NCBI GenBank assembly: GCA_963787255.1
Contig: CAWBCJ010000029.1
Location: 128,001 to 192,000 of the forward strand
DNA length: 64,000 nt
Direction of reading: 5' to 3'
DNA from: Methanobacteriota archaeon
GTDB taxonomy: Archaea; Methanobacteriota; Methanobacteria; Methanobacteriales; Methanobacteriaceae
Shown in pieces: positions 1,839-64,000 of this stretch (positions are counted from its first letter, which is position 1; each line of letters opens with the position of its first letter). The translations under genes were made by a program, and so were the position numbers. The notes below the pieces were generated by a model. That model did not search any database. It was not told the origin of the DNA and saw nothing but the letters and a program-made list of their open reading frames with translations.

Positions 1839-1905
1839 AATGTAATAAATTCCAAAAAAAATTGATTTGGAGTTACAGCAAGTGTAGTGAGTACACATCA
1901 AAAAT
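1839..1905 (+). repeat. 67-nt dispersed two-hairpin element, copy 1 (ehbJ-ehbK spacer)
   Basis: 66/67 identical to the reverse complement of 63361-63427. Confidence 0.95.
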
Positions 1906-1932: not shown

Positions 1933-3291
1933 ATGTTTTTATCAACCAAAAAATGCGAAGGCATTGGAGAATGTATCAAAGAATGCCCAACAGGCGCAAT
2001 AAGGCTAGTAGAAGGCAAACCATTTAGCTGTATAACATGCGGTGCTTGTGCAGAAGCATGTCCCAACAGAGCCATATTTAAAAACAAGTACGGAGGCTTT
2101 GTTGTTGATAGGGCGAAGTGTAATGCCTGCGGAGTTTGTGAATTAACATGTCCGGTAAACAACATAACTATTGAAGGCGACATGGTAAAAGGAATATGTT
2201 CAAGATGTGGAATATGTGTAGATAACTGTCCAATTGGTGCCAGAGTAGATGCTTATGATATAATTGAAGATAGACAATTAAAATTCCTTGAATCATTAAA
2301 CCTTACAACTCAACCCAGCATGAGGGTTAAAACAGAAATTGACAACTCAAATAGAGTTAATGTGGTTACAGATTTTGAAAAATGTACATTATGTGGAAGA
2401 TGTGAGTATTACTGTCCAACAGATGCCATAGAAGTGGATATTGAGCCCGGTACATGTACAGAATGCAGAGTTTGTGAAGATGTTTGCCCTGCAGAAGCTA
2501 TTAAAGATACAACTATTGACCCTGAAAAATGTACATTATGCCTTAAATGTGTTAAAGAATGCCCAAATAAGGCAGTTTATATTGATGATTTTGAAATAAA
2601 AATAAGGAAGCCAGAAGACGGCGAGGAAATAGAAGGAAGTATAATTTCATGCCTGAATTGTGGTTTATGTGCCGATGCATGTAAAGCGGGTGCATTGAGG
2701 ATGATAAATGGTAAAATACGCTATGATCCTTCACTTTGTGATGAATGCGATACCATGGAATGCTTGGATGCATGCCCAGTTGGAACACTTAGATTGTCTG
2801 ATGATGCTACATGTAGAATAAAAGGATTCTGTGTATCATGCGGAAGGTGTGTAAGAGCATGCGATGTAAATGAGGCAAGAAGCTTTAAAAATGTCACATG
2901 GGATGGGACAGTAACTGATGACTGTATATCTTGTGGAATATGTGCAGAATTATGTCCAAAAGAAGCAATAACTCTTAAAAGAGGTAGTATCGATGTGGAT
3001 CTTGAAAAATGCGTTTTATGTGAAAAATGCGCTATTCACTGCCCGATGGATGCAATTCCAAAAACTACCATGCATAAAAAATCTATTAAAGATGGATTCG
3101 TATTTATTGAAAACAAATTGTGTATGAACTGTAAACTATGCGTTAATACCTGTCCTGAAGAAGCAGTAGGTGAAGATGAAAACAGCAGGATAACTGTAGA
3201 CGATTCAAAATGCATATACTGCGGTGCATGCAATAATGTTTGTCCTGCAAGAGCCATATTATTTGAAAGGGAATTCGAGGTATCACAATGA
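1933..3291 (+). CDS. ehbK: Ehb polyferredoxin subunit K
   Basis: 452 aa with many CxxCxxCxxxCP motifs. Confidence 0.92.
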
Positions 3292-20244: not shown

Positions 20245-20901
20245 ATGGGGAAACTTGCAATAACTATAAAATCAGATAATAAGCCGGGTGTTTTACGTGA
20301 TATTACTGATTTAATGGCAAAATGCGGAATGAACATTATTTATACTCATCTTTTTATAGAAAAAGACGGATCATCATCAGTATACATGGAACTTGAAGGA
20401 GTTAGAAATGGAGAAGAACTTTCAAACAATGTAAAAAAGTTTGAATCTGTAAATAAAGTGGAAATTCATCCTTCTTTAAGTGAAATTTATGGAAAAAGAA
20501 TTATTATTATTGGTGGCGGCGCTCAGGTAGCCCAAGTTGCACAGGGAGCCATAGTAGAGGCAGATAGGCACAATATAAGGGGTGAACGTATTAGTATTGA
20601 TACAATTCCTCTTGTAGGAGAAGAAGAGCTTGCAGATGCGGTATCAGCTGTGGGAAGACTCCCTCGAATAGGTGCTCTAGTTCTTGCAGGTTCTTTAATG
20701 GGTGGAAAAATCTCTGATGCAGTTGAAGAGATTAAAAAAGAACACGATGTTATTATAATAAGCTTAAACATGCCTGGAAGTGTCAGAAATATGGCAGATT
20801 TAGTAGTTACAGACCCTGTTCAAGCTGGAGTTATGGCAGTTATGGCTGTGGCTGATACAGCAATATTTGATATTAAAAAGGTAAAAAATAAAAGGTTTTA
20901 A
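20245..20901 (+). CDS. ehbQ: ACT-domain protein (DUF5612-like), probable EhbQ orthologue
   Basis: N-terminal ACT ([10 protein letters not shown]) and conserved [24 protein letters not shown]. The ehbQ assignment rests on recalled Methanothermobacter synteny. Confidence 0.6.
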
Positions 20902-21182
20902 CTCATTTCTATAGCTCTAATCAGTATACTTGCAGCGTTTTTAAGTTCAGTATCCTTAATTTCCCCGCTTTCTCTGATTTTAAGGGCCATTCCCAGTACT
21001 TTTCTTACATCATCGGGTTTAAGGTTTTCAGCCATTTCAAGGTAGGTCTGATCTCCTTTTTCTTCAATTTCGAGTTTTTTTGTTTCCATTAACTCAAGCA
21101 TTACTTTACATGCACCCATGATATCGCCGCTTCCAGCGCTTTCCTGGCATTTTTTTAATAATTCTTCAGATTTTGCATCCAT
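20898..21182 (-). CDS. Small helical Cys-pair protein, paralog 1 (most divergent)
   Basis: KKC-x11-C and [14 protein letters not shown], shared with three adjacent genes. Confidence 0.8.
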
Positions 21183-21366
21183 TTATAACACCAATAGTTA
21201 TTATGCACTATAATGGATTTATATTTGATTATTATGCGTTTTCAAAATAATAATACTTGAATTGTTATTCCATCTAAATAATCTAAAACAGTAGTTTATG
21301 TAATTAATTAAAAAAAATAATTTGTTTAAAAATTTAAAAAATGAAATTATGCTGCTTACGTTAATA

Positions 21367-21675
21367 TTAAAACATTTCAATGGCTCTAATTAATCGTGCT
21401 GCAGCGTTTTTTACTTCGGTATCGGTTATATCTCCACTATCTCTTACTATAAATGCAATTCTAAGAACCTCTGGAACATCTTTTGGGGCTATGTTTTGCG
21501 CCATCTGAATGTAAGATTGTCCTGTTTCATCATTTAATACAATATTTCCACTTTCCATTTCTTCTAAAAGTACCTGGCATGCGCCCATTCCCTGAGTAGC
21601 AATTTCCTTATCTTCACATTTTTTCATCAATTTCTTTGCATTTTCATCGAGAGGTATATTTTTTTGCTTCATCAT
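21367..21675 (-). CDS. Small helical Cys-pair protein, paralog 2
   Basis: KKCEDKEIATQGMGACQVLL; GGTGA SD. Confidence 0.8.
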   Translation of the reverse strand: MMKQKNIPLDENAKKLMKKCEDKEIATQGMGACQVLLEEMESGNIVLNDETGQSYIQMAQNIAPKDVPEVLRIAFIVRDSGDITDTEVKNAAARLIRAIEMF

Positions 21676-21709
21676 ATCACCTATAGCTTCTTATTTAATA
21701 AATAGATAG

Positions 21710-22015
21710 TTAAAGTGCTTCTATCACCCTAATCAGCCTATCCGCAGCGACTTTAAGTTCAGGTTCAAGATTTGGACGCTCTTTAATTTTAAATGCCATC
21801 ATAAGGATTTTTGGTACATCTCGTGCTTCAATTTCTTGAGCCATCATTAAATAAGACACATCATGATTCATTTCCCCTAAATCTATTTCTTCCCTGTCCA
21901 TCTCTTCTAAAAGTACCTGGCATGCGCCCATTCCCTGAGTAGCAATTTCCTTATCTTCACATTTTTTCATCAATTTCTTTGCATTTTCATCCAGAGCAAT
22001 CTTTTTAGGGTGCAT
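21710..22015 (-). CDS. Small helical Cys-pair protein, paralog 3
   Basis: Same motif; ATG at 22015 is preceded by GGTGA SD. Confidence 0.8.
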   Translation of the reverse strand: MHPKKIALDENAKKLMKKCEDKEIATQGMGACQVLLEEMDREEIDLGEMNHDVSYLMMAQEIEARDVPKILMMAFKIKERPNLEPELKVAADRLIRVIEAL

Positions 22016-22061
22016 GAAATCACCAGAATAGTCAAATCTTGACAATATTCTTAATGATTAA

Positions 22062-22352
22062 TTAAAAGGCTTCTATTGCTCTTATTAATCTGTTTGCAGC
22101 GTTTTTAAGTTCAGGACTAACATTTGGATCTTGTTTCATTTTTAATGCCATATCAAGAACTTTAGGAACGTCTTCGGGAGTTATGTTTTGTGCCATCTGC
22201 ATGTAAGATTGGTTTGGATCGTCCCCTTCAAACATTATATCCTCTTTTTCCATTTCCTTTAAAAGTACCTGGCATGCGCCCATTCCCTGAGTAGCAATTT
22301 CCTTATCTTCACATTTTTTCATCAGTTTCAGTTCATTTTCATTCATTTGCAT
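22062..22352 (-). CDS. Small helical Cys-pair protein, paralog 4
   Basis: Same motif; GGTGA SD. Confidence 0.8.
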   Translation of the reverse strand: MQMNENELKLMKKCEDKEIATQGMGACQVLLKEMEKEDIMFEGDDPNQSYMQMAQNITPEDVPKVLDMALKMKQDPNVSPELKNAANRLIRAIEAF

Positions 22353-22636
22353 ATTATCACCAGCTTAATATATGATCTTTAAAGGATTTAAATTTAATAC
22401 TAGTTTAAAAAATAATATGATAATTAGGAGGATTAGGAATAGGTATTACTGAATCAAAAATTCTAAATAACAAAAAGCACATACTAAAATAAAAAAAATA
22501 TTTTCCACAATTTAAAAATGAATAAATCCAACATAATACCCCATAATTAAATTTAAATCTTAAATACAGAACTTAAATTGATATTACGCCCATACCAACT
22601 AATTAATATTATATAAATAGCTTTGGAGGTAATTAA

Positions 22637-49046: not shown

Positions 49047-49125
<79 letters not shown>

Positions 49126-49163
49126 GGGAATTAAATAATCGTGAGGAATATGTTTTTTTCGAA

Positions 49164-49247
49164 TGCGGGAGCAGGGATTCGAACCCTGGTAGGCCTACGC
49201 CAACGGGTCCTAAGCCCGTCCCCTTTGGCCAGCTCGGGCACCCCCGC
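49164..49247 (-). tRNA. tRNA-Leu(TAG)
   Basis: ACGGG-CT-TAG-GA-CCCGT anticodon arm; long variable arm. Confidence 0.95.
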
Positions 49248-49268
49248 TAGCTGTGAGTATTAAAAGTT

Positions 49269-49314
49269 GTCAAAACGGGGTTTTGACTGTCTGTAAAAAT
49301 CAAAGATTTTTACA
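49269..49314. repeat. Two adjacent perfect palindromes in the tRNA-Glu/Leu spacer
   Basis: GTCAAAAC-GGG-GTTTTGAC and TGTAAAAATC-AAA-GATTTTTACA. Confidence 0.75.
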
Positions 49315-49325
49315 AAATTAAAGAA

Positions 49326-49403
<78 letters not shown>

Positions 49404-49459
49404 ATACAAATTTACAATTTGTGCTCCAAAATTCTTCGAATTTTTGAGAGCATATGAAA

Positions 49460-49533
49460 TGGGCCCAATGGGATTCGAACCCATGGCCGCTCGGTTATGA
49501 GCCGAGCGCTCTACCTGGCTAAGCTATGGGCCC
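49460..49533 (-). tRNA. tRNA(CAT), most likely tRNA-Ile2 (agmatidine-modified)
   Basis: CT-CAT-AA loop. The GGGCCC acceptor stem is typical of archaeal Ile tRNAs rather than Met. Confidence 0.85.
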
Positions 49534-49537
49534 TCAG

Positions 49538-49610
<73 letters not shown>

Positions 49611-57435: not shown

Positions 57436-57963
57436 TTATTTATCCTCAACTAAAACTTTCATTTTACCATCGTAAAGGTCTATTATAAGACCATGTATAG
57501 GCACATCATCAGGAATAAATGGAGATTCTTTTATTTTTTCCACTACGTTTATCACATTTTCCTCTTCACTATCAATTGCCCCTATCCATTCTTCAATATC
57601 CACATCTAGAATGGTTTTTTCATCCACGCCTCGCGCTTTCATTGCATCAGTAAGTCTTTCAGGATCTACATTTGCCATTCCACATTCATAATGTCCGACC
57701 ACCATTACCTCTTCAGCGCCCAACGCGTATATGGCTGCTGCAACGGATCTTATAACATCCCTATCAACTACAGCATTACCTGCATTTTTAATTATCTTTG
57801 CATCTCCTCTTTCAATTCCCATTGCAGGCTCTAAAAATCCTGTAAGTCTGGTATCCATGCATGTTACAATAGCTAACTTCTTCTTTGGCATGTGACTCAT
57901 TTTTTTAGGTTCAAAGTCTTTAACAAAATCTTCATTGGCTTTTAGTACTTCGTCAAGCATCAT
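57436..57963 (-). CDS. cab: Beta-class carbonic anhydrase (Cab type)
   Basis: TCMDTR, KNAGN and GHYECGM zinc ligands. Confidence 0.92.
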   Translation of the reverse strand: MMLDEVLKANEDFVKDFEPKKMSHMPKKKLAIVTCMDTRLTGFLEPAMGIERGDAKIIKNAGNAVVDRDVIRSVAAAIYALGAEEVMVVGHYECGMANVDPERLTDAMKARGVDEKTILDVDIEEWIGAIDSEEENVINVVEKIKESPFIPDDVPIHGLIIDLYDGKMKVLVEDK

Positions 57964-58229
57964 TTTTATCACCTGAAATAATTAAATAGTAAATCACATC
58001 TTGAAACTAAGTTTTACTCCTTTTTTCATATATTTTAGAGGTGATGGAGTAAAAGATCAGCTTCAAGTAGCAGATAGAATTCAATCTATCTACATTCTCA
58101 AAAATATAAAATATGATTTACTGAATTTCATTGATACTGCATCTTCAGACAGACTAAAGCATCATTTAAACAGTAACAGTGATATTTCCTAATTTTTTTA
58201 AATAAAAAATATATAAAAAGTGAGTTTTT

Positions 58230-59433
58230 TTATTCCTCACTTGGCTCTTTATCTATTTTAGAAAGAGGCGGTTTTTGTTCTATGTCATATCCTGGACGGT
58301 ATCCAAAGGATTCTTGCAATTGGACATTTATCTTATGGAAGATTTTTGCAAGTGGAATCTCCGCAGGACATACTTCCTCACATTGACCACAGTTTGTACA
58401 TGAATCCACCATATGAAGCATTCTTACAAAGTGGAACATTGGTGATGGTGGAAGTTCTCCTTTTCCTACCCATTCATTAGATTCTGACTCAATAGAACAT
58501 TTTACACAGAAGCAAAGTGGACATGCTTCTCTGCAGCCAAAACATTTTATACATTTGTCAAATTCATCCATGTACTGATCAAGGGAAAGTAGTTCACCAC
58601 TTTCTTCTCCGAAGTTCCTGTCTTGCCATTTGTTTGCCAGATTTACCATTGACTTTATCAATATTTGCACGTATCTCAATACCCTTAGGTACTGGATCCT
58701 GTACCTTTAAAGCTCCGGCTTTTATAGCTTTATCTAAGACTTCTGCACCTTTATCTGAGAATACTTCCACAAAGGTTGCTTTACCTGCAAGAGGACCTAT
58801 AACACCCCAATTACCCATAGCTAAATCTGACATTACAGGTATATTGTTTTCACACCTTCTGCAGTTTGTCCTTCGTCCAAATCCTTCATCTTCAAGTTCG
58901 TCAATGCTTATTTCTTTTTCTTCGTCGTCTGCTGTTTCTATGATTAAGTTACCTTTGGCGATTTCTTCTTTTACTACAGTGTCAGGGTCGATTTCATAGA
59001 ATTTTTCTATCATTTCACGAGCCTGTACTGGAGGTAAAGTACCACCACAGTTAACTCCAATCATTACAACGTTGTCTCTTTCTATCTGGTTTCTTTTCAT
59101 GAGCTCTACAATGGTCATTGCATCGCAGGGCTTTGTGGTAACAGCTATTTTCATGTCCTTTGCGCCGTTGAGGTACTTATTGAGGGTTTTGGCGATGTTC
59201 AGTGTACCGCAGTGTAAAGAACCCGCTGACTCTATAACTTCCTCTGGGTCAGTTATTAAAGTAGGTACAGCGTCGTAAAGGTCTGCGCCTTTTTTAACTG
59301 CTAAGACTGCATCTACAATACCTTCTTCAAGTAAGAATTTCATTACAGATGTCACGGCTCCGCCGCATTCTCCACTTTCAGCTATCTCATCGTCTGGAGA
59401 CCATGCATAATACATATCATTTACTTTAACCAT
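58230..59433 (-). CDS. fdhB: F420-dependent formate dehydrogenase beta subunit, second copy, apparent frameshift near 58650
   Basis: [29 protein letters not shown] and C-terminal [24 protein letters not shown]. Confidence 0.9.
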
Positions 59434-59437
59434 GTGA

Positions 59438-59863
59438 TCACCCGATTTCCGCCTTATTTTTTCTCCAGGAGAAAGGACCAAGTTCTTTTACCTGATCACT
59501 TACTGTCCTCATTGCTTTGGCGAATTTTTCACCTTCTGATGCAGATATCCAATCTAGATAAAATCTTCCTTCAGGAATGCCTATGGTTTTCATAACTGTT
59601 TTTAGGCCTTTTATTCTACGATCACAAGCATAATTTCCTCTATCGTAGTGACAATCTCCAAAGTGGCATCCTGCGACCATTACTCCATCTGCTCCCTCGT
59701 CAAACGCTTTTAAGATGAATAGAGGATTTATTCTTCCAGAACACATCACTCTAATTATACGTACGTTTGGAGGATATTGCATCCTTGCTGTACCTGCAGT
59801 GTCTGCTCCACCGTATGAACACCAGTTACAACAAAAAACTAGTATTTTCGGTTCCCATCCCAT
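59438..59863 (-). CDS. mvhD: MvhD-type [2Fe-2S] subunit
   Basis: [28 protein letters not shown] and WISASEG motifs. Confidence 0.93.
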
Positions 59864-59932
59864 AATATCTTCTCCCTGTTAATTTATTTAATTTATTTAA
59901 TTTTTTTTAAATGTTAATATGAAAATTAAATA

Positions 59933-59954
59933 GGAAGTGAGTATCCTCACTTCT
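59933..59954 (-). terminator. Stem-loop between fdhB and mvhD
   Basis: GAAGTGAG-TATC-CTCACTTC. Confidence 0.5.
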
Positions 59955-59977
59955 TCTTTATTTTCCAACATTTTGAA

Positions 59978-61175
59978 CTATTTACTAGGCATTGGGAAGT
60001 AAGAAAGAGGTGGTAATTTTTCATCCATTCCCCTTACATATCCATAAGTTTCCTGTAATTTAGAATTGATTTCATGTGCAATTCTTGCAAGTGGAATCTC
60101 CGCAGGACATACTTCCTCACATTGACCACAGTTTGTACATGAATCTGCCATATGAACTAATCTTTCCAGATGGAACATTGGTGATGGTGGAAGTTCACCT
60201 TTAGCTATCCATTCAGGGCCATTTGCTTCTAATGTACATTCAGCACAGTAACAAATAGGACATGCTTCTCTGCAACCAAAACACTTTATACATTTATCGA
60301 GTTCATTCTGATATTGTGCTACAATAGAAAGGAGATCTCCACCATTTTCCTGGAAATCCTTGCCTTGCCATTTTTTAGCTAATCTTACCATAGCTCCATC
60401 GATAGTTTCACGTATTTCAACACCTTTTGGTATAGGATCCTGTACTGTTAAGGCTCCTGATTCTATAGCTTTATCTAAGATTTCTGCACCTTTTTCTGAG
60501 AATACTTCTACAAAGGTTGCTTTACCTGCAAGAGGACCTATAACACCCCAATTACCAAGTGCTAAATCTGACATTTTAGGAATGTTAGTTTCACATCTTC
60601 TACAGTTAGATCTTCGACCGTATCCCTCGTCTTCAAGTACGTCTATGCTTATTTCTTTTTCTTCGTCGTCTGCTGTTTCTATGATTAAGTTTCCTTTGGC
60701 GATTTCTTCTTTTACTACAGTGTCAGGGTCGATTTCGTAGAATTTTTCTATCATTTCACGAGCCTGTACTGGAGGTAAAGTACCACCACAGTTAAGTCCA
60801 ACCATTACAACATTGTCTTCATTGACTTTTTCTCTTTTCATTAGTTCTCTAAGTGTCATTGCATCGCAGGGTTTAGTTGTGACAGCTATTTTCATGTCTT
60901 CTGCACCGTTAAGGTATCTTGTCAACAACTTTTGCCATGTTTAGTGTACCGCAGTGTAGTGAACCTGCTGATTCTATGATTTTCTCTGGGTCAGTTATTA
61001 AAGTAGGTACAGCATCGTAAAGGTCTGCGCCTTTTTTAACTGCTAAAACTGCGTCTACAATACCTTCTTCGAGAAGAAATTTAAGAACTGAAGTGACGGC
61101 TCCGCCGCACTCTCCACTTTCTGCTATTTCTTCGTTTGAAGATAATGCATAATATTTATCGTTTACTTGGACCAT
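59978..61175 (-). CDS. fdhB: F420-dependent formate dehydrogenase beta subunit, apparent frameshift near 60925
   Basis: Same motifs as the other copy; directly follows fdhA. Confidence 0.92.
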
Positions 61176-61183
61176 GTGATCAC

Positions 61184-63291
61184 CTACTTTCCTATATCGT
61201 AAGCTTTTTTAGGTGTGGTTCCTGCCATTCCTGCTGTAGGTTCTAATTTTGTAACACTTGCTGCAGATACTTTAAATTCTGGCATTTTAGCTGCTGGATC
61301 CAATGCAAAACTTTGGGTCAATGTATTGGCTGCACATTCTACAAAGTGGAATGGTATAAATATTACTCCTTTCATGATGTCTGGAGTAACTTTTGCATTA
61401 ATTGCAATTTCTCCACGTCGTGTTTTAACACTCACCATTTCTTTATTTTTTATACCAAGTTCAGCGGCATCTTCTGGGTTAATTTCAACAAAACCTGTTG
61501 GAACTTCACTGGCTAATGTATCTGATCTTCTGGTCATACTACCGGTGTGCCAATGGAACAGCATACGTCCAGTTGTGAGTGTAAGTGGATATTCTTCATC
61601 TGGAAGTTCAGCAGCTGGTATAAATTCAATTGGCATAAGTACTCCAAGACCGTCTGCAGTTGCAAATTGTTCTGCCCAAAGTATAGGAGTTCCAGGGTGC
61701 TCTTCATCTGGGCATGGCCAGTGTAGTGCTTCTGGTTTTTCCAGTCTTTCTTTGTTCATACCTGCATATTGAGGGGTAACTGTCCTTACTTCTTCTAATA
61801 TTTCTTGTGGTGAGTTGAAGTTAAATAGGTCAGATCCCATTTTCTTTGCAATATCACAAATTATAGCCCAATCAGCTCTTGCTTCACCTGGTGCATCAAC
61901 TGCTTTTCTTATGTATTGCACACGTCTTTCTGTGCTTGTGAATGTTCCGTCTTTTTCAGCCCATGATGTTGCAGGAAGTACTACGTCTGCTAATTCAGCT
62001 GTTTCTGTTAAGAAGATATCTTGTACAACTAAAAAGTCTAGGTTTTCAAGAGCTTCCTTAACGTGTTGAATGTCAGGATCTGAGACCATTGGGTTTTCAC
62101 CCATTATGTACATACCTTTGACATCGCCAGAGTCTGCTGCATTCATCATTTCAACTACGGTTAGACCTGGTTTGCAGTTTAGATCACCACATCCCCATGC
62201 AGTTCTCATTTTTTCAGCCATTGGTTCTTCTATGACCTTTTGATATCCAGGGTATACAACTGGGAGTGCTCCCATGTCACATGCTCCTTGAACGTTGTTT
62301 TGACCTCTTAATGGGTTAACTCCTGTTCCTGGCCTTCCAATGTTACCTGTAATCATTGCAAGGTTGGATGTTGACATAACGTTATCTGTACCTGTGGTGA
62401 TGTTGAGTTATACCCATGGAATATACAATAGCCAGCGTTATCTGCTTTTGCATACATTCTTGCAGCTTCTTTAATTAGATCAGGTGATGCTTCAGTTATA
62501 TCTGCCACTTTTTCAGGAGGGTAGTTTTTGACAACTTCTTTTAGTTCTTCAAAGTTTTTTGTTCTTTTTTCTATGAATTCTTTGTCTTCAAGCCCTTCTG
62601 AAATTATCACGTTCATCATGGCGTTCATAAATGCCACGTCTGTTCCTGATTTAAATGGAATATATAAATCAGCTTTTTTTGCAGAAGGTGTAAATCTTGG
62701 GTCTGCGACTATTAGTTTTGCTCCATTAGCTTTTGCTTGTAATATTCTTCTCCACATTAGAGGGTGCTGTTCTAAGGTGTTAGATCCTATTATGAATATA
62801 ACATCAGCGAATTGTATACTCTTAAGGTGGTTGGTCATAGCTCCTGATCCAAATGTCTGGGCAAGTCCTGCAACTGTAGGACCGTGACAGAGTCTTGCAC
62901 AGTGGTCTATGTTGTGTGTTCCTATTACGGTACGCACAAGTTTCTGTAATAGGTAATTTTCTTCATTTGTACATCTTGCTGAAGAAAGGAACGCAAGAGC
63001 TTCTGGATCTACGCTTTTTATTTCATTTAATTTGGATACAACTAGGTCTAAAGCTTCATCCCATGTTGCTTCCTTAAATTCACCGTTTTGTTTAATTAAA
63101 GGTGTTGTTAATCTATCTTCTCTGTGAACGAATTCGTATGAAAAGTTACCTTTAGGACATAATTTTCCTTCGTTTACAGGATTTCTTTTCCATGGTTCGA
63201 CACCTGCAAGCTTCCCATCTACACTTACTAAGTTAAAACCACATCCACATCCGCAGTACGGACATGTAGTTGGGGTATATTGAATGTTCAT
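61184..63291 (-). CDS. fdhA: Formate dehydrogenase alpha subunit (Cys-type Mo/W-bisPGD), apparent frameshifts near 62390-62430
   Basis: TCPYCGCGC...[27 protein letters not shown] and [13 protein letters not shown] motifs. Confidence 0.95.
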
Positions 63292-63360
63292 TGTTTACCT
63301 CCTATTATTTACCAAATAAGAATTATTAAATTATATATGTTATTTACTTTGAATAATATC

Positions 63361-63427
63361 ATTTTTGATGTGTACTCACTACACTTGCTGTAACTCCAAA
63401 TCAATTTTTTTTGGAATTTGTTACATT
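63361..63427 (-). repeat. 67-nt dispersed two-hairpin element, copy 2 (fdhC-fdhA spacer)
   Basis: Reverse complement matches 1839-1905 at 66/67 positions. Confidence 0.95.
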
Positions 63428-63578
63428 ACCATTATAATCAAAGTATGTAAATTTCAGATGTCATTAAATATAATTGAAATTTGAAGTATTATCCTTCTCT
63501 TTTTCAGTCAAAAAAAAATAATGAAAATGGAAGGATTAATAAAACCTTACCAATTTTTCTATTTACTTGTACCTTTAG

Positions 63579-64000
63579 CTAAGCTTCTGCTTTTGGGGTT
63601 TCAGTTCCTCTAAGATAAGTCCACCAGTAGATTAGTGATACAAATATTGCTCCACCAATAATGTTACCTAATGTAGCAGGTACCATGTTGTTTACGAAGA
63701 ATTGTGTCCAGGTGACTCCACCTAAGAATATTCCAACTGGTATGAAGAACATATTTGCAACTACGTGCTCAAATCCTATTGCAACGAAAGCAAAGATTGG
63801 GAACCAAATTCCGAGTATTTTACCAATAATATCATCTGATGCGATAGCTAAGTATACTGCAAGACATACAAGCCAGTTACAGCCTATAGCTCTTAAGAAC
63901 ACTTGTACCCATGTTAAAGAAACAGTATTTTTTCCTGCTGCTACAAAGGTTGCTCCACCAAGAGCTTTTGTTTTAGCAATTGTTATTGCTGCCGCAGCCC
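63579..64000 (-). CDS. fdhC: Formate/nitrite (FNT) transporter, 5' end beyond window
   Basis: [22 protein letters not shown] and TLGNIIGG motifs; upstream of fdhA. Confidence 0.93.

Follow-up and report, generated by a model that had tools for sequence, protein, structure and literature searches.

A 67-nt non-coding element conserved 5' of ehbK, with a second copy 5' of fdhA, carries a palindrome that recurs at the fwdH promoter of Methanobacteriaceae

Two near-identical 67-nt sequences lie far apart, and inverted with respect to each other, in the window analysed here, a 64,000-nt stretch of the genome of a member of the Methanobacteriaceae (contig CAWBCJ010000029.1 of assembly GCA_963787255.1, positions 128,001 to 192,000). 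One precedes ehbK, a gene of energy-converting hydrogenase B (Ehb), and the other precedes the formate dehydrogenase gene fdhA. An earlier note on this DNA had read the pair as either a shared cis-acting RNA element coordinating two electron-input systems or a repeat of REP/MITE type, recently mobile and biased in its orientation. The locus thus raises the question of what this sequence is: a folded RNA, a dispersed repeat, part of a promoter, or a site that is recognized in DNA. The features at the first copy are as follows, in coordinates of the window.

1545–1820, + strand: 91-aa membrane-protein ORF upstream of the element, without a family match and assigned to ehbJ by position alone
1839–1905, + strand: the ancestral copy of the 67-nt element, with the 91-aa ehbJ-position gene on its 5' side and ehbK on its 3' side (orthologous copies in the genus)
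1840–1861, + strand: conserved 5' block of the element, consisting of ATGTAATAAA, TC and an A-run (invariant alignment columns)
1882–1896, no strand: perfect palindrome GTGTA-N5-TACAC, identical to hairpin 2 of the earlier note; proposed operator (arms kept in 21 of 22 aligned copies)
1933–3291, + strand: ehbK, polyferredoxin of energy-converting hydrogenase B, first gene 3' of the first copy (NCBIfam)

Alignment of the two copies (1839–1905, + strand, and 63361–63427, − strand) revealed 66 identical bases out of 67, with a single T/C change at element position 8, and flanks that are unrelated on both sides. A repeat search of the window recovered the same pair (67 nt, 99% complementary), while the runner-up inverted pair measured 41 nt at 71%. 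These results bear out the coordinates, identity, sharp boundaries and unrelated flanks first described for the pair. The spacings were likewise correct, with 27 nt between the end of the first copy and the ehbK ATG at 1933 and 69 nt between the end of the second copy and the fdhA ATG at 63291, and each copy is sense-oriented relative to its own downstream gene. NCBIfam identifies the 1933–3291 product as a 452-aa polyferredoxin, the name EhbK being taken from operon position, and homologues of ehbK were found in 120 of 121 genomes of the family. Placement of the element within both operons holds for the ehb copy but is less certain for the fdh copy, which sits between fdhC and fdhA, past a terminator-like hairpin and T-run. 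Elsewhere in the window, at positions 20897–22376, a unit of about 350 nt is repeated in tandem three to four times, the copies being 62–87% alike.

A search of the whole genome (2.47 Mb, E ≤ 10) gave 29 candidate matches, two of which cover the full 67 nt; the remaining 27 are 14–30 nt long with E ≥ 0.012. The dozens of randomly oriented copies expected of a generic repeat were not found in this genome. We then asked how the element is distributed in the genus and family. BLASTN detected it in 12 of the 22 other species of the host genus and in none of 38 genomes outside the genus. A covariance model added three genus species, with scores of at least 56 bits within the genus, and a palindrome pattern search combined with reading of the loci added four more diverged copies. 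In total the element is present in 19 of the 22 other genus species, always immediately 5' of ehbK. Surveyed in this way for copy number, orientation and downstream genes, as had been suggested, it occurs once or twice per species, and ehbK is the constant neighbour. The relative G002 retains the 5' block only, and no element was found in the G011 and G012 assemblies (80% and 84% complete). In 137 genomes of other genera of the family, a covariance-model scan yielded three marginal matches (34–35 bits), two of which lack the exact palindrome. In 13 genomes from other genera, ehbK is preceded by a spacer of 50–250 nt that is unrelated to the element. Since the element is conserved 5' of ehbK in 19 of 22 species and the spacers of other genera are unrelated to it, this spacer is its home site. 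Orthologous copies from different species differ by 6–29%, and a small-ORF reading of the element is ruled out by the 1–2-nt indels that occur among species in the segment linking the two hairpins. The element is a real, sharply bounded, genus-wide conserved non-coding sequence.

The second copy lies in the following setting.

61184–63291, − strand: fdhA, in two frames as a result of two 1-nt insertions relative to relatives (NCBIfam and comparison)
63331–63339, − strand: TATA-like box about 45 nt 5' of the fdhA ATG, 3' of the second copy (putative function, judged from sequence)
63361–63427, − strand: 67-nt element, secondary copy, in the fdhC–fdhA spacer (sequence match)
63370–63384, no strand: palindrome of the second copy (pattern search)
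63510–63551, − strand: hairpin and T-run directly 3' of fdhC, terminator-like and kept in orthologous spacers (putative function, likewise)
63579–63998, − strand: 3' part of fdhC, formate/nitrite transporter family (NCBIfam)

Orthologous fdhA genes, with at least 87% identity to the query, were found in eight genomes including that of the host (G000), and the spacer element was present only in G000 and G009. A filter-free covariance-model search of the other six fdhC–fdhA spacers gave no match better than E 0.8. The G009 copy sits about 60 nt 5' of a conserved spacer block, and the G000 copy begins right behind the homologous block. The comparison of orthologous spacers for empty sites, proposed in the earlier note, showed both insertion points to be empty in G001. 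The boundaries of the copied unit are the same to within 1–2 nt in the G000 and G009 fdh copies, and both copies are sense-oriented (2/2), an orientation that a bare palindrome would not need. Each fdh copy has its closest counterpart in the ehb copy from the same genome (98.5% in G000, 86.6% in G009), and in the ehbK tree the two genomes fall in different clades with 100% support each. The different insertion points, the own-genome similarity and the different clades argue for two separate copy events, and the fdh spacer copy probably arose twice independently. A single old fdh insertion followed by gene conversion and several losses would be a less simple account. In G005 and G020, which are close relatives, the fdhC–fdhA spacer is of a different type, with repeated aataatcatg units, and the element is missing; the G005 spacer also contains a GTGT-N5-ACAC palindrome, which has a shorter spacing.

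These observations bear on two further readings of the pair. The sharp boundaries, the near-identity of the G000 copies and the arrival of a second copy at two different points of one spacer in two species are what would be expected of a REP/MITE-like repeat that moved recently and favours one orientation, and the element resembles REP and MITE sequences in being short, non-coding and furnished with internal inverted repeats. It differs from them in having an orthologous home site, held in 19 of 22 other species, and at most two copies per genome: there are two full copies in G000 and one or two in every other species. Moreover, no terminal inverted repeats or target-site duplications were seen at the G000 and G009 fdh junctions, BLASTN outside the genus detected the element in 0 of 38 genomes, and the 137-genome model scan gave the three marginal matches alone. 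We therefore consider a mobile repeat very improbable. The inverted copies, 61.5 kb apart, might instead serve as a recombination substrate that is kept homogenised, in which case an inversion could swap ehbK–Q and fdhAB behind ehbA–J and fdhC. Their 98.5% identity, set against the divergence of orthologues across species, suits this idea, as does the same inverted layout in G009, where the copies are 58.8 kb apart. The rearranged order was seen in none of the assemblies read, however, 67 nt is short for efficient recombination, and such a role leaves the conservation of the ehb copy in single-copy species unexplained; we give it hardly any credence.

As fdhA is split in the host, we examined the condition of the fdh genes. 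Positions 62353–63291 and 61184–62377 encode the two halves of formate dehydrogenase alpha (NCBIfam), within a cluster on the − strand (57436–63291) that comprises fdhA, fdhB, an mvhD-like gene (59438–59863, Pfam FlpD), a second fdhB and a carbonic anhydrase gene. With the intact G009 operon of the same gene order as the reference, we found frameshifts in fdhA, fdhB and the second fdhB of G000, while its mvhD-like and carbonic anhydrase genes are intact. The fdhA break consists of two 1-nt insertions, neither of which falls in a homopolymer, and G005 carries its own separate break in fdhA. If the assembly is right, formate dehydrogenase appears to be decaying in G000 and, since the fdh genes are frameshifted, the second copy would at present be unable to coordinate formate use in this organism. 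The idea that the element coordinates two electron-input systems thus fits G009 and is at odds with G000, where fdhA, fdhB and the second fdhB are all frameshifted.

We next considered whether the element acts as RNA. In this scenario, which we regard as unlikely, hairpins 1 and 2 would form a processing, stability or protein-binding site within the ehb mRNA that sets the ratio of ehbA–J to ehbK–Q, and likewise acts on fdhA. The ehb copy lies within its operon, without a T-run behind the upstream gene, and is therefore probably transcribed, whereas the fdh copy is separated from fdhC by the terminator-like hairpin and T-run. Folding is better than in shuffled sequences for both G000 copies (z = −2.7 and −3.25), but not for the copies from four other species (z = +0.20, −0.47, −0.68 and −1.39). 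One inner-stem pair of hairpin 1 covaries (C-G in 5, U-G in 7 and U-A in 8 sequences), several one-sided stem changes convert G-C to G-U, and every copy, including both fdh copies, is in the sense orientation. Against these points, RNAalifold retained hairpin 2 alone on both 15 and 22 sequences, a three-helix model had 89.3% of its cells paired versus 89.2% in shuffles, and its covariation score was equalled by 136 of 500 shuffles. Changes on both sides occurred in one of the 17 pairs of this model (22 sequences); pair 14–32 is C·A in 10 of the 22 sequences, and the outer two pairs are broken in 8 and 9 of them. The stem of hairpin 2 is invariant, and the same stem sequence is found again at fwdH, where the predicted transcription start falls inside it.

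The two-hairpin fold described in the earlier note therefore fared poorly, with hairpin 2 alone kept by RNAalifold, pairing equal to that of shuffles and a single covarying pair. The T/C difference, which had been noted for preserving pairing on the transcribed strand, is a single observation and carries no evidential weight. An Rfam scan of the window at gathering thresholds gave five tRNAs and nothing at the element, and in a local E-value scan of the element the lowest E was 0.82, for unrelated families; the element belongs to no Rfam family, and the note had likewise put forward no named family. The tRNAs form a five-gene cluster at 49051–49610 on the − strand. A covariance model of the element finds copies in the genus, but support for the structure is slight. 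In a soil metatranscriptome (0.07 of sampled words), 45 short contigs were recovered, mostly from relatives and 30 of them less than 90% alike, and none demonstrably spans the ehb element. What stands of the shared cis-acting RNA element is a discrete, conserved, cis-acting, non-coding sequence common to two electron-input clusters; the RNA fold is the weak part. Since the arms of hairpin 2 are fixed, pairing equals that of shuffles and no Rfam family matches, what is conserved is mainly the primary sequence. Hairpin 1 may yet have a role as RNA, though with weak support. That hairpin 2 never covaries, and that its stem recurs at unrelated promoters, suggests that the sequence itself is recognized, most simply as DNA.

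The palindrome was followed through the genome. The exact pattern GTGTA-N5-TACAC occurs at four sites in 2.47 Mb, two of which are copies of the one element, and all four are non-coding: 5' of ehbK, fdhA, mvhD and fwdH. These correspond to eight strand hits, compared with 0, 0, 0, 2 and 0 in five Markov simulations, and the reversed control pattern has one site in the genome. Recurrence before redox operons is above chance for the exact pattern (four sites versus 0–1 expected), with the qualification that the link to fwdH is post hoc, as the genome was searched with the element's own palindrome. With the looser pattern GTGT-N7-ACAC, intergenic positions account for 5 of 11 sites (the four above and a distal fwdH site) versus 1 of 11 for the reversed control. 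When one mismatch was allowed there was no enrichment (11 intergenic sites versus 8 for the control). Genus-wide, the exact pattern is in approximately twofold excess (81 sites versus 42 for the control), and some of the conserved sites lie inside coding sequence. Among aligned copies of the element, the palindrome arms are unchanged in 21 of 22, and the 5-nt centre varies, with at least five different centres.

The mvhD palindrome lies about 47 nt 5' of the point where the mvhDGA hydrogenase operon probably begins, plausibly at the core promoter. It is present at 4 of 4 loci in the genus and at 0 of 26 loci from other genera, and it may be a by-product of GTACA boxes or have some other origin. 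In other genera the mvhD leaders (loci L159–L184) lack the palindrome and contain a GTACA box, repeated two to four times at conserved positions, which probably represents a regulatory motif of its own. In five genomes of other genera, fwdH was the only gene seen to be marked by the palindrome, and GTGT-N7-ACAC sites outside fwdH are mostly coding (15 sites read). Within the genus, two further palindrome-marked loci precede proteins or ORFs without a Pfam family. In G004 (L113, 1501–1532) and G021 (L114, 1501–1532), two GTGTA-N5-TACAC palindromes stand 17 nt apart, directly 5' of a gene for a 163–185-aa protein without a Pfam family.

At fwdH the palindrome holds a fixed place. In G000 it lies 11 nt 5' of the start of fwdH, which leads the fwdH-F-G-D-A operon, and across 29 loci a proximal palindrome with at most one mismatch ends 11–13 nt before the fwdH ATG, directly 5' of the ribosome-binding site, in 28 (17 genera). 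A distal palindrome is found 77–78 nt upstream at 19 of the 29 loci, and a TATA-like box (0–1 mismatch) 12–17 nt 5' of the proximal palindrome at 28 of 29. In most genera of the family, two palindromes thereby flank the fwdH TATA box. The GTGT and ACAC half-sites are exact in 28 of the 29 loci, without compensatory change, and at the fifth arm position the two arms often fail to match, so that an RNA hairpin would have an A·C mismatch there. In archaea the TATA box is centred near −26. Given this and the spacing of the TATA-like box, the fwdH palindrome should span the transcription start. With the start predicted inside the palindrome, the complete hairpin would be absent from the fwdH transcript, and we infer that the site acts as DNA. 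Scans for sigma-70 promoters and intrinsic terminators were set aside, as they are inapplicable to archaeal promoters.

In the element, the best TATA candidate, GTAATAAA, has two mismatches and lies 32 nt 5' of the palindrome; a canonical TATA box at fwdH-like spacing was not found there. The first seven bases of its 5' block resemble, by eye, the left half of the fwdH operator. The element could alternatively be ehbK's own internal promoter, an upstream activating region or a translation-initiation context, serving a factor other than FwdH, so that its palindrome would match that of fwdH by coincidence. The lack of a canonical TATA box argues against this, as do the arms that stay fixed around a variable centre, just as at fwdH, and the position of all four exact genome sites directly 5' of core redox operons. 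On the other hand, the ehbK spacer is unusually long (approximately 50–250 nt) for a tightly packed operon in every genus examined, conservation continues from the element into the ribosome-binding region, and a block like the 5' part of the element stands just 5' of the fdhA TATA-like box in G001 and G009 (by eye). The one-mismatch scan, with its absence of enrichment, also favours a promoter of ehbK's own. Weighing these points, we find this explanation quite unlikely.

As the palindrome marks its promoter, we examined the product of fwdH as a candidate regulator. The gene lies outside the window (G000 C29:582085–582549; locus L102, 4086–4550, − strand) and is the first gene of the fwd operon; its product, FwdH, is an orphan of fwdHFGDACB that is not known to be part of the solved enzyme. 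FwdH is a 154-aa protein that matches Pfam HTH_3 at residues 17–48 (24.6 bits, gathering cut-off 23) and contains 4Fe-4S ferredoxin (Fer4) domains, an architecture in which an Xre-type HTH is fused to a 2x[4Fe-4S] ferredoxin domain. Full-length homologues were found in 53 of 60 other genomes of the family, from 25 of 27 genera. In 19 family sequences, the presumed recognition helix (R35 to R45) and the eight cysteines of the two cluster motifs are invariant. The AlphaFold model of FwdH has a mean pLDDT of 83.7. A Foldseek search of this model against the PDB gave no match at E ≤ 0.001; the weak rows were small ferredoxin subunits and, for the N-terminus, C.Esp1396I (E 0.3, probability 0.75).

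Modelled as a homodimer, FwdH scored 0.50 versus 0.00 for the best control. A score of 0.50 was reached by 20 of 30 solved same-chain pairs and by 1 of 23 solved single chains, a rough calibration since FwdH was run with a custom alignment. The dimer runs agreed in at least 92% of contacts, with a partner pLDDT of at least 86. The modelled interface is symmetric and involves residues 53–73, so the predicted dimer would suit a palindromic site. Encoded directly behind the fwdH promoter, FwdH is the most likely candidate for a dimeric regulator that would bind the palindrome.

Among the papers listed by a search of the openly accessible literature, none treats FwdH as a regulator, and nothing was found there on the element at ehb or formate dehydrogenase genes. 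What PMC3814884 says of fwdH and ehb includes neither the element nor a regulatory role. A genome review names FwdH only within fwdHFGDACB, and according to a genome review of Methanothermobacter the redox or H2-status sensor is yet to be found.

Comparison with known systems places this proposal in context. The NrpR operator at the nif and glnA promoters of Methanococcus is an archaeal repressor operator that overlaps the transcription start. The palindrome described here resembles NrpR operators in being short, with fixed half-sites and a free centre between a TATA box and a start codon, and in having two sites at the regulator-proximal promoter. It differs in its half-site, GTGTA/TACAC, and in its proposed regulator, and the ehb site, intergenic within an operon, lacks a canonical TATA box at operator spacing. 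Bacterial Fe-S transcription factors of the FNR, IscR and RsrR types bind palindromes as dimers. FwdH is like them in the predicted coupling of an HTH to an Fe-S cluster and unlike them in its combination of an Xre-type HTH with a 2x[4Fe-4S] ferredoxin domain. Controller proteins such as C.Esp1396I are Xre-type HTH dimers that autoregulate via two palindromic operators at their own promoter, as proposed here for FwdH, but they have no Fe-S domain, their biology is unrelated, and the structural match is below significance. In Methanothermobacter, Tfx is a small HTH protein encoded directly 5' of fmdECB that binds DNA just past the promoter (PMC3087415). Like Tfx, FwdH is an HTH protein encoded at formylmethanofuran dehydrogenase genes in the same order of methanogens; Tfx belongs to the operon of the molybdenum enzyme and lacks an Fe-S domain, whereas fwdH opens the operon of the tungsten enzyme. 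In the available part of PMC3087415, FwdH is not credited with binding DNA.

Together, the sequence comparisons suggest that the element may be a cis-regulatory DNA module with a fwdH-type operator that gates ehbK–Q and was later recruited to fdhA, a reading to which we give an even chance. Its 3' third would supply the operator, a 15-bp palindrome with the same half-sites and spacing as the palindromes of the fwdH promoter, and a dimeric regulator, most likely FwdH, is predicted to bind it. Binding would gate transcription that enters ehbK–Q, the electron-transfer and catalytic half of Ehb, either by repression of an internal promoter or as a roadblock, from a position that we place at the boundary with ehbA–J, the membrane-subunit half. 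Copying into the fdhC–fdhA spacer in two species would have brought fdhA under the same control. A more far-reaching version is tentative, and we think it may well not hold in full: FwdH would be an Fe-S redox-sensing HTH repressor, autoregulated via the two promoter palindromes across Methanobacteriaceae, whose control in one genus came to include Mvh, the catalytic half of Ehb and, in two independent events, fdh, the last two by copying of the 67-nt cassette.

Even without the operator link, the element is a well-defined non-coding sequence with genus-wide conservation, placed where the membrane half of ehb meets the catalytic half. How hydrogenases and CO2-reducing enzymes are regulated by electron supply in hydrogenotrophic Methanobacteriales is largely obscure, and here one short palindrome joins four electron-input or CO2-reduction gene sets. 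The candidate regulator, with its Fe-S domain, is concrete, expressible and testable. If the link is true, the palindrome and FwdH would be the first operator–regulator pair for the fwd operon, FwdH would be a candidate for the missing redox or H2-status sensor, and the copies of the element would constitute a clear natural case of regulatory rewiring through the copying of a small cassette.
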